Shown: positions 12,025 to 14,511 of the stretch, piece by piece | Layout of the letters: each line of letters begins with the position of its first letter | Numbering within the stretch: position 1 is the stretch's first letter | DNA from: a virus | Virus record (IMG/VR): IMGVR_UViG_3300046051_000044 | Coordinates: 1,353-65,352 of that record | Direction: 5' to 3' (one strand) | DNA: 64,000 nucleotides | The notes under the pieces: generated by a model | Databases searched by the model: none | The model's input: only the letters and a program-made list of their open reading frames with translations | Told to the model about the DNA's origin: nothing | Translations under genes and position numbers: made by a program

Positions 12025-14511
12025 GTTTCAGACGAACCCTTGTGGGGTTGAAGGGACCTGAACGTGCCACTCGCCGTATCGTATCTCGATACCGTTTCAG
12101 ACGAACCCTTGTGGGGTTGAAGGGAGGCGTTCAAACGGGCCGAGCAGCAGGTCGGAGTGTTTCAGACGAACCCTTGTGGGGTTGAAGGGAGAAGTATTCC
12201 GGCGTCGAGTCGGGGAAGGACGGGTTTCAGACGAACCCTTGTGGGGTTGAAGGATCGCTGACGCCCCGGTAACGCTGCTCGCGGTCGCGTTTCAGACGAA
12301 CCCTTGTGGGGTTGAAGGGTTTTTCTGATGTTTCATGGCCGAAAAAGTGACCGTGTTTCAGACGAACCCTTGTGGGGTTGAAGGGGGGTCTTGGACAGGC
12401 GTACCCGTACGCGATCCTTAGTTTCAGACGAACCCTTGTGGGGTTGAAGGCCGCCATCGTTTGCCGTGAAAAACACCACCCGCTGGTTTCAGACGAACCC
12501 TTGTGGGGTTGAAGGATGGCCTCGACGGTCGGCTCGAACGCCTCCGCCATGGTTTCAGACGAACCCTTGTGGGGTTGAAGGTTTGTCGATGACCGTCACC
12601 GGGACGTGGTCGTGCAGGCGTTTCAGACGAACCCTTGTGGGGTTGAAGGCCGCTTCAGTTCCTGGGCAGCCTTCCGATTACTGATCGTTTCAGACGAACC
12701 CTTGTGGGGTTGAAGGGACCGTGACGAGATGGACGAGGTGGACGCTGACGAGGTTTCAGACGAACCCTTGTGGGGTTGAAGGGTCCACGGCAACACGGGC
12801 GTGGGCAAGACGCTCGCGTTTCAGACGAACCCTTGTGGGGTTGAAGGGGTAGGCACATCCCGCCGTAGGGCCACCCGCCTTTGAGCCCGTTTCAGACGAA
12901 CCCTTGTGGGGTTGAAGGGACACACTGGTTTCTGGAAGATCGAGAGACGGAGGGTTTCAGACGAACCCTTGTGGGGTTGAAGGCGCAACGCGGATTCGCG
13001 GGAGATACGCACCCACGGCGTTTCAGACGAACCCTTGTGGGGTTGAAGGTCGCGACAGGCGTTGACCAACCTGTCGACGAACATGGTTTCAGACGAACCC
13101 TTGTGGGGTTGAAGGTCGACGTCTGCCGTGACGCTCACGTTGCCGTTCGAGTTTCAGACGAACCCTTGTGGGGTTGAAGGGATGATATCGCCCTCAGTGA
13201 TCGGGCCGTCGATCGATGTTTCAGACGAACCCTTGTGGGGTTGAAGGTCGACCTCGACCATGGCGCTCTCGAACTCGCGGGCGGTTTCAGACGAACCCTT
13301 GTGGGGTTGAAGGCTCCTTGTCGAGGCGCTGGCCGTTCTCGCCGACGGGCTGGTTTCAGACGAACCCTTGTGGGGTTGAAGGGGTTCGAGCCGGGCGATG
13401 GTGACGTCGACGCTCACGAGCGTTTCAGACGAACCCTTGTGGGGTTGAAGGAGCTCGAAGGGGCCGGATCGAGAGGCGGGCGAGTGGCGTTTCAGACGAA
13501 CCCTTGTGGGATTGAAGGGAATGGGAATACCGTCCAGTCGACCATCGACGGGTCGTTTCAGACGAACCCTTGTGGGGTTGAAGGGACGGTGATCAGCCGG
13601 ATGGGTGGATTAGATCATCGTTTCAGACGAACCCTTGTGGGGTTGAAGGAGCCGAAGCCAGCGACACCACACGCCGGGAAGTGCTGGTTTCAGACGAACC
13701 CTTGTGGGGTTGAAGGAGAGGTGGCGCCGAATGATCGACGCCCCGTGGTGGTGGTTTCAGACGAACCCTTGTGGGGTTGAAGGCCACACTGCTCGTATCC
13801 AGTCCAGGATCCTCGGCCGGTTTCAGACGAACCCTTGTGTGGGGTTGAAGGCTTGAAGGCACTCAGGTCATCCAGTAGGCGCCCGATGTTTCAGACGAAC
13901 CCTTGTGGGGTTGAAGGGCCTCGCCCTGCGTGATCGGCCGGACGCGGACGTAGTTTCAGACGAACCCTTGTGGGGTTGAAGGCCCTTGAGCGTAATGACG
14001 TCCTCTCGAATGAACGGAGTTTCAGACGAACCCTTGTGGGGTTGAAGGGCCGTGTCCGTTGTTATTGTCGCGTCAATATCGCCCGCGTTTCAGACGAACC
14101 CTTGTGGGGTTGAAGGGATGCGTGATCCCGGCGTCGGCTATGACCCCGACTAGTTTCAGACGAACCCTTGTGGGGTTGAAGGGAAGAAAACCCCGTAGGT
14201 GGCTTCACCGATGATGAAGTTTCAGACGAACCCTTGTGGGGTTGAAGGCGCGACAACGACACGGAGTGCATCGCAATCGAGGTAGTTTCAGACGAACCCT
14301 TGTGGGGTTGAAGGCGCGCGTACATCCCTGTCGACGGCCACCGCGATGAGAGTTTCAGACGAACCCTTGTGGGGTTGAAGGGAGTTTGGGCTGGGATCGG
14401 CGGTCGAGTTCCGCGCGTTTCAGACGAACCCTTGTGGGGTTGAAGGGGGTAGCGGTCGAGATACCGCCGGGCGATTGTGAGGTTTCAGACGAACCCTTGT
14501 GGGGTTGAAGG
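12025..14511 (+). CRISPR. CRISPR array, 38 repeats / 37 spacers (35-41 nt), repeat GTTTCAGACGAACCCTTGTGGGGTTGAAGG
   Basis: Counted by hand; all 38 copies end in GAAGG. Repeat 23 has GGGATTG; repeat 28 has a TG insertion. Differs from the canonical haloarchaeal I-B repeat only at position 30 (C to G). Confidence 0.98.

Follow-up and report, generated by a model that had tools for sequence, protein, structure and literature searches.

Why should a CRISPR array carry spacers that match tail genes on the same contig, and what do the few differences between these spacers and their targets record? The question is raised by a window of 64,000 nucleotides (nt), positions 1,353 to 65,352 of IMG/VR record IMGVR_UViG_3300046051_000044, a linear contig of 80,898 bp from a salt-lake archaeal virus or plasmid; all coordinates below are those of this window unless another locus is named. 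An initial annotation, made from the letters alone, had read four self-matching spacers of the array at 12025-14511 as acquired in succession from the leader against an evolving lineage of this virus, with mismatches broadly increasing away from the leader and two of them as possible escape mutations. The observation is real and exact, and its interpretation is supported in part: the spacers are genuine acquisitions and their targets cluster in the tail module, and the mismatches are of the kind that divergence between related viruses produces.

Four spacers match the tail module of the same contig

The array was parsed independently from the window, and the spacer numbering of the initial annotation was found to hold. 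Every spacer was then searched against the rest of the window and subsequently against the whole record. Exactly four stood out, with targets 6-14 kb from the array; none of the other 33 spacers exceeded 71% identity on the 80.9-kb contig, a level that shuffled spacers did not exceed anywhere on it either. The array, the four spacers and their protospacers, the latter given with the TTC protospacer-adjacent motif (PAM), are as follows.

12025-14511, + strand: CRISPR array, 38 repeats and 37 spacers
13050-13085, + strand: spacer 16, a perfect self-match (36/36 to 28763-28798, - strand, TTC PAM)
13519-13554, + strand: spacer 23, 35/36 to 25372-25407 (- strand, TTC PAM), mismatch at position 4
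14117-14152, + strand: spacer 32, 33/36 to 20441-20476 (- strand, TTC PAM), mismatches at positions 10, 25 and 28
14382-14416, + strand: spacer 36, 33/35 to 22276-22310 (+ strand, TTC PAM), mismatches at positions 1 and 13
28763-28801, - strand: protospacer 16 and TTC PAM, codons 286-297 of the tape measure gene
25372-25410, - strand: protospacer 23 and TTC PAM, codons 171-183 of the 447-residue gene just downstream of the tape measure gene
22273-22310, + strand: protospacer 36 and TTC PAM, antisense to codons 435-446 of the 507-residue baseplate-hub-like gene
20441-20479, - strand: protospacer 32 and TTC PAM, codons 276-288 of the 327-residue distal tail/baseplate gene

The four matches, their coordinates and the number and positions of the mismatches agree exactly with those first annotated. 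TTC lies directly 5' of all four protospacers and every PAM is intact. The four spacers are real acquisitions carrying the TTC PAM of haloarchaeal I-B adaptation. When the spacer alleles were swapped into the four genes and translated, every protein was unchanged, all six differences falling at third codon positions. The codons (spacer/genome) are AAT/AAC, both Asn, for spacer 23, GAT/GAC, TAT/TAC and GAC/GAT for spacer 32, and CTC/CTA and TCC/TCA for spacer 36, which are the synonymous pairs that had been listed.

The proposal that all four hits are in tail genes was likewise borne out by family matches, a structure model and homology, which place the following targeted genes in the tail module.

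25925-29653, - strand: tape measure gene, 1242 residues, matching PhageMin_Tail and many tape-measure PHROGs
24576-25919, - strand: 447-residue gene, assigned to the tail by position and by homology to the tail module of a related contig (L016)
22090-23613, - strand: 507-residue baseplate-hub-like gene, whose Atlas model resembles gpD/VgrG/Prophage_tail hubs (template-modelling score 0.55-0.65)
20320-21303, - strand: 327-residue distal tail/baseplate gene, matching phrog_18555 and homologous to genes of the L016 and L015 tail modules

The model of the 507-residue protein suggests a resemblance to a baseplate hub of gpD/VgrG type. The 447- and 327-residue open reading frames (ORFs) lie downstream in the same operon and have homologues in the tail modules of related contigs; their fibre or receptor-binding signals are weak leads. 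The four targets fall within 8.4 kb, three of them on one strand. With TTC sites counted, their confinement to the 11.1-kb tail module has a probability of 0.024 relative to the virion module and of 3.5e-4 relative to the contig. The clustering of targets in the tail module is non-random.

Two further candidates were set aside as unproven. The derivation of spacer 19 from a distant tape measure gene was based on a 24/36 match with TTC that was equalled by 30% of codon-shuffled spacer sets, and a similar match of spacer 20 had no accompanying peptide similarity. Searching the whole array against phages returned chance-level matches only.

Repeat type and polarity of the array

The repeat is a 30-nt unit of haloarchaeal I-B type that belongs to the GTTTCAGACGAACCCTTGTGGG.TTGAAG. 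family, in which variation is tolerated at position 23. Spacer lengths range from 35 to 41 nt (n=37), with 35 spacers at 35-39 nt and the four self-matching ones at 35-36 nt; I-B systems have spacers of about 34-39 nt and a TTC PAM, the latter present here at 4/4 targets. Arrays with the same repeat family are carried by many haloarchaeal megaplasmids (a search of the array against plasmids gave repeat matches only), and in a repeat scan the repeat was absent from every other IMG/VR contig.

The leader precedes the first repeat.

11885-12024, + strand: CRISPR leader (I-B type), with two motifs common to Haloparvum and Halomarina array flanks

These 140 nt contain a palindromic TCGACCCCCGGGGGG motif and a GGTCGAYGG motif, both of which recur, at an equal distance from repeat 1, upstream of the arrays of this repeat in genomes of Haloparvum and Halomarina. 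The last eight bases of the repeat, read in the present orientation, are the 5' handle of the Haloferax CRISPR RNA (crRNA), and a related locus described below (L021) has a degenerate terminal repeat at the far end of its array. Because of this motif homology, the handle orientation and the degenerate terminal repeat of L021, the leader is placed at the low-coordinate end, which makes spacer 1 the newest and spacer 16 younger than spacers 23, 32 and 36. The polarity assumed at the outset was therefore correct.

Thirty-six of the 38 repeats are identical. The sole two variants lie at 13489-13518 (A in place of G at repeat position 23, in the repeat that immediately precedes spacer 23) and at 13820-13851 (a 2-nt TG insertion, upstream of spacer 28). 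Repeat position 23 is the first base of the crRNA 5' handle and also the site that varies among three Haloferax loci. A G is found at the first position of 19/37 spacers, which probably stems from the codon phase of TTC-flanked sites in G+C-rich coding DNA.

The mismatches fit ordinary divergence

Under random substitution, the probability that six of six mismatches are synonymous is 2.5e-4, and the mismatches are therefore evolved alleles of working genes and not random errors. With about 37 synonymous sites and six synonymous changes, purifying selection at a ratio of non-synonymous to synonymous rates (dN/dS) of 0.05-0.1 predicts 0.9-1.7 non-synonymous changes, and the probability of observing none is 0.42-0.18. 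Because purifying selection alone gives an all-synonymous pattern, synonymy cannot separate escape from neutral divergence.

One alternative is that the array belongs to the host and documents its repeated meetings with a single, evolving lineage of virus, so that mismatches grow with spacer age and some of them represent escape; the virus would now be a provirus on the same host replicon, and the spacers directed against it would be tolerated as no cas genes remain on the replicon. The correct polarity of the leader is in its favour. So are the mismatch counts of 0, 1, 3 and 2 at spacers 16, 23, 32 and 36, which tend to rise away from the leader as first stated (Spearman 0.8, n=4; multinomial test on the index-weighted sum, p=0.059). 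This trend is suggestive, but it comprises four points, and 4 of the 24 permutations do as well (exact p=0.17).

Escape was then considered at the level of positions. In the Haloferax I-B system, which has a 10-nt seed, pairing at positions 1-5, 7-10 and 13 is essential to interference. Seed changes are indeed present, but by this measure they number three (positions 1, 4 and 10) and not two, and position 13 is essential as well; each of these four mismatches (4/6) would block interference in Haloferax, as the host-array explanation could lead one to expect. However, third-codon sites in the three mismatched targets fall on positions 1, 4, 7, 10, 13 and onward, and because of this phase the placing of 4/6 mismatches at essential positions, against 5/12 expected for third-codon sites, is unremarkable (p=0.20, no enrichment). 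All four PAMs are intact, so that escape is possible but not indicated.

The sole outgroup, L015 (75% identical), carries the resident allele at two of the three mismatch sites of spacer 32 and the spacer allele at the third. By these alleles, two of the changes belong to the donor lineage and one to the resident; the comparison is weak, synonymous sites being near saturation at 77% nucleotide identity, and it mildly favours sister lineages over a resident genome mutating away. Changes on both lineages weigh against the host-array explanation.

The element itself could also have been under selection. According to this second alternative, which we consider decidedly doubtful, the spacers are directed against kin, and resident alleles at seed or essential positions were selected because they protect the element from its own array. 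In all three mismatched targets at least one mismatch does fall on an essential position (4 for spacer 23, 10 for spacer 32, 1 and 13 for spacer 36), and the portogloboviruses discussed below, which offer a precedent, carry point mutations at their self loci, with targets near the array. Against this, such a pattern has a probability of about 0.24 by chance when changes are limited to third-codon sites, and the resident allele at seed position 10 of spacer 32 is shared with the 75% identical relative L015 and is not obviously derived. Moreover, spacer 16 is a perfect self-match with a PAM. Combined, six silent mismatches are what ordinary divergence between close viral relatives gives, and neither an age gradient nor escape is shown by them.

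The array lies beside a TnpB/Cas12f-like gene, probably as part of a mobile element

Six-frame searches of the 80.9-kb record gave no match to Cas1 or Cas6, with models that both detect the Haloferax control, and none to a tyrosine integrase; there was no match to a DevR-type Cas7 either, with a model that misses the Haloferax control too. The adjacent cas6b-cas8b-cas7-cas5-cas3-cas4-cas1-cas2 genes of a I-B locus are not seen on the record, which may be incomplete, and no housekeeping genes were found among the ORFs scanned on the contig. The array lies where a plasmid-like module meets the virion module. The ORFs that flank it are a TnpB-like gene and methyltransferases, and between the array and the tail genes there are two methyltransferase genes and a Cas4-like nuclease gene.

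10199-11398, - strand: TnpB/Cas12f-like RNA-guided nuclease gene, 399 residues, divergent from the array leader
17660-18358, + strand: Cas4-like PD-(D/E)XK nuclease gene (PDDEXK_1; phrog_1706 'CRISPR/Cas system associated', 8.5e-22; TIGR00372 cas4, weak)

The TnpB-like protein scores 114.7 bits with NCBIfam guided_TnpB (cut-off 100). Among solved structures those of Cas12f type are closest to it, and its RuvC D/E/D residues line up with theirs. A single-protein scan of IMG/VR with this protein returned a 23% match only.

Homologues with 53-62% identity to the TnpB-like protein were retrieved with their surroundings at six loci. In four of them (L021, L022, L023 and L026) a I-B-like array lies on the 5' side, with 8 to 78 repeats of differing sequence, the 5' end of the nuclease gene facing the array; at L024 and L025 the nuclease gene is present and a repeat search found no I-B-like array. 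Tail or tape measure genes directly follow the nuclease gene in L021 and L023, and in L026 the module is found amid mostly unannotated, virus-like small genes. L021 lies in the genome of a Haloarcula amylolytica isolate (G001, a 4.2-Mb draft), in which neither Cas1 nor a second array with that I-B repeat was found and the sole such array adjoins the TnpB-like gene and provirus tail genes. With neither Cas1 nor a second such array in that genome, the array there travels with the element. The oldest L021 spacer has a 26/38 partial match 24 kb away in the same Haloarcula contig, with neither a TTC PAM nor a seed match.

To the left of the array, window positions 1-9731 are syntenic with positions 8993-21830 of L019, a 39-kb circular plasmid of Salinigranum rubrum with Cdc6 and pilin-like genes: seven consecutive + strand genes correspond at 30-40% identity. 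The 10 kb left of the nuclease gene contain no phage homologues. The left part of the contig forms a backbone of plasmid type, to which a tailed-virus module is joined.

These data bear on the host-owned array from both sides. The left flank is plasmid-like, haloarchaeal I-B arrays are common on megaplasmids, and cas genes were not found on the contig, all of which it would accommodate. On the other hand, neither an integrase nor att sites were found, and the nuclease-plus-array module recurs by the tail genes of other (pro)viruses, in one case in a genome without Cas1. Together with the permutation test, the lack of enrichment and the intact PAMs, this makes a host-owned record unlikely. The setting of host against virus, which the initial annotation took for granted, gives way to one in which the array is more likely part of the mobile element itself (no I-B cas genes, recurring module).

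Depth in contigs from a halite metagenome run is 16.6x for the left flank, 13.7-19.9x for the right flank and 19-21x for the tail genes, an evenness that fits one molecule. Two halite runs, X2 and X3, contain almost nothing of this stretch. At the protospacers no alternative alleles were seen in the halite-run contigs, which drop rare variants and are silent on minor alleles. The same contigs break inside protospacer 23 (25374-25400), where 32 nt are shared with the array, and none breaks at the 36-nt protospacer 16; this difference may reflect unequal abundance of the two spacer units.

A proposed origin of the spacers in relatives, and the exception of spacer 16

The explanation that we favour, with confidence somewhat above even, is a joint one: spacers derived from kin, neutral synonymous divergence, an array owned by the mobile element, and a role in the exclusion of related viruses. 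The four spacers would be CRISPR memories of earlier variants or close relatives of the resident tailed virus, taken up by adaptation machinery of haloarchaeal type I-B style (TTC PAM, 35-36 nt, leader-end insertion). The six mismatches would represent synonymous divergence between donor and resident genomes, filtered by purifying selection on the tail proteins; such divergence requires neither escape nor a clock, either of which may nevertheless have operated. The array would be part of a mobile element made up of the tailed virus, the plasmid-like module and the TnpB/Cas12f-like nuclease at the leader, and not of a host cas locus. Its crRNAs, used by a host I-B effector, by the neighbouring nuclease or by both, would then serve to exclude related viruses.

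The clustering of targets could be accounted for by primed adaptation seeded by older, imperfectly matching spacers, or alternatively by a donor that shared only the tail module with the resident virus. Five of the six ordered protospacer pairs obey the priming orientation rules of Haloarcula hispanica, a count that has no statistical power with n=4 spacers: protospacers 16 and 23 share the strand of 32 and are upstream of it, the same is true of 16 with respect to 23, and 16 and 23 are each downstream of, and inverted relative to, 36. The clustering would be coherently, though unprovably, explained by successive primed acquisitions against one virus lineage.

Several results weigh against the kin-derived, element-owned array. 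Firstly, the record is a short-read metagenome assembly with an estimated completeness of 77%. Secondly, because the left 10 kb are syntenic with the Salinigranum plasmid and lack phage homologues, the contig may be a plasmid with a resident provirus, which leaves ownership of the array unsettled. Thirdly, the spacers of L021, L022, L023 and L026 match neither their own 10-kb flanks, nor each other, nor the present contig. Fourthly, a close relative of the virus is absent from the phage, IMG/VR, genome and metagenome collections searched. Megablast of the virion region against cultured phages gave no match, its protein-level relatives being distant; a search for relatives of the target genes returned one distant locus in IMG/VR and none in species genomes; and among 5.8 billion proteins the gene targeted by spacer 32 had its best non-self match, with 75% identity, on a contig of 1.2 kb. 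Protospacer scans, exact or degenerate, were empty for a spacer 16 pattern in viral contigs and in metagenomes, and for a spacer 32 pattern allowing both allele sets in metagenomes. Because no donor or near relative was found, that the spacers were taken from relatives is something we infer. Lastly, spacer 16 is a perfect self-match with a consensus PAM, unexpected for an element that avoids self-targeting.

Any effector that used the array would be expected to cut the element, and the sequence offered no reason why it does not. Tolerance of the spacer 16 target might have several causes. The host may be devoid of I-B interference, the nuclease may use another PAM, the spacer may belong to a minority variant of the array, or its crRNA may be ineffective; in Haloferax, not all crRNAs are effective. 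A purposeful self-directed guide is also possible. This last idea can be extended to all four spacers, the element deliberately carrying guides against its own late genes for use by the TnpB/Cas12f-like nuclease or a host effector, but in that form it appears very improbable. Such guides could keep the tail module unexpressed while the element persists in a plasmid-like carrier state, or they could destroy incoming or recombinant kin genomes with a shared tail module, the resident copy being shielded. If true, this would constitute programmed self-directed CRISPR targeting by a virus-plasmid hybrid.

A chimeric assembly, in which two different genomes, that of the virus and that of the element with the array, were fused, is scarcely credible. 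The contig does come from a short-read metagenome, Logan contigs from the same habitat are interrupted at several places on the way from the array to the tail genes, one of them within protospacer 23, and the sample contains further arrays with this repeat. Depth, however, is even over the virus and both flanks (13.7-21x), and at the interruptions the contigs overlap by about k-1 bases, as is usual for graph branch points. An erroneous join made through a shared spacer would be expected at that spacer and not 4 kb away, and the same neighbourhood occurs in an isolate genome and in other assemblies.

Relation to known systems

The portogloboviruses SPV1 and SPV2 of Sulfolobales carry mini-CRISPR arrays that have leaders resembling those of the host, lack cas genes and contain spacers directed at kin; in the carrier the orthologous sites have point mutations, and the targets are close to the array (Medvedeva et al. 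2019, PMC6858448). The present locus shares with them an array that is probably on a mobile element, a host-like leader and repeat, the lack of a cognate cas operon, and spacers that match the virus's own gene set. The self copies of the targets of spacers 23, 32 and 36 also differ by point mutations and lie near the array, whereas the target of spacer 16 does not conform. In contrast to the 1-2 spacers of a portoglobovirus, 37 spacers are found here in association with a haloarchaeal tailed virus, there is a TnpB/Cas12f-like gene by the leader, one self-match is perfect, and a reciprocal partner virus was not found. Of the precedents, the portoglobovirus mini-arrays come closest to the picture as a whole.

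Haloarchaeal proviruses encode adaptation-deficient type I-B systems whose arrays mostly target viruses, including tape measure genes, and for which, it has been proposed, a co-resident I-B system acquires the spacers (Naki and Gophna 2025, PMC12596717). Here too, a I-B-type array linked to a haloarchaeal (pro)virus has a tape measure gene among its targets. However, those proviruses retain cas6, cas8, cas7, cas5 and cas3, whereas no I-B cas gene accompanies the present array, only the TnpB-like and Cas4-like nucleases; self-matching spacers were not a subject of that study.

In the I-B system of Haloarcula hispanica, TTC precedes 94% of acquired protospacers, acquisition needs an older, partially matching spacer, new spacers are inserted at the leader end, and new protospacers cluster around the priming site, whose orientation they keep when upstream of it, being inverted when downstream (Li et al. 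2014, PMC3936756). The TTC PAM, leader-end insertion, clustered targets and pair orientations seen here (5/6) resemble that process. Unlike in Haloarcula hispanica, the adaptation genes are not on the contig, and four spacers would be only a possible footprint of priming.

Self-targeting spacers against resident prophages are known, as is tolerance of self-targeting in Haloferax. As in those cases, a perfect, PAM-flanked spacer coexists with its target in one genome; unlike in prophage self-targeting, array and target are found on one mobile contig without effector genes of the subtype of the repeat.

Taken by itself, the mismatch pattern is nothing unusual: spacers that differ silently from their current targets, the more so the older they are, are a familiar footprint of shared virus-CRISPR history. 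It is the setting that deserves attention: a long I-B-type array with its leader and no I-B cas genes, in a virus/plasmid-like element with a Cas12f-like neighbour, contains four guides, each with a PAM at its target and one without any mismatch, against the tail module of the element itself. If the array does belong to the element, virus-versus-virus CRISPR warfare extends from the 1-2-spacer mini-arrays of hyperthermophiles to long arrays of haloarchaeal tailed viruses, and the locus provides a natural case for how a mobile element tolerates a perfect guide against itself.

Other features of the virion module

Capsid, Mu-F-like, portal and terminase genes lie upstream of the tail genes, and Halobacterium phage ChaoS9 has a large terminase with 47.6% identity to the one encoded here. 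At the other end, the 578-residue gene at 18559-20295 (- strand) is the most distal tail gene and likely encodes a fibre. Within it, the 191-nt stretch at 19033-19223 is present in two versions in the halite-run contigs, at depths of 10.3x and 6.1x, and these are distinguished by 19 bases in 16 codons, 9 of the codon changes being synonymous and 7 not. The sample therefore contains at least two strains, which are unlike in a probable receptor-binding segment; a second strain is visible at 19033-19223 only.

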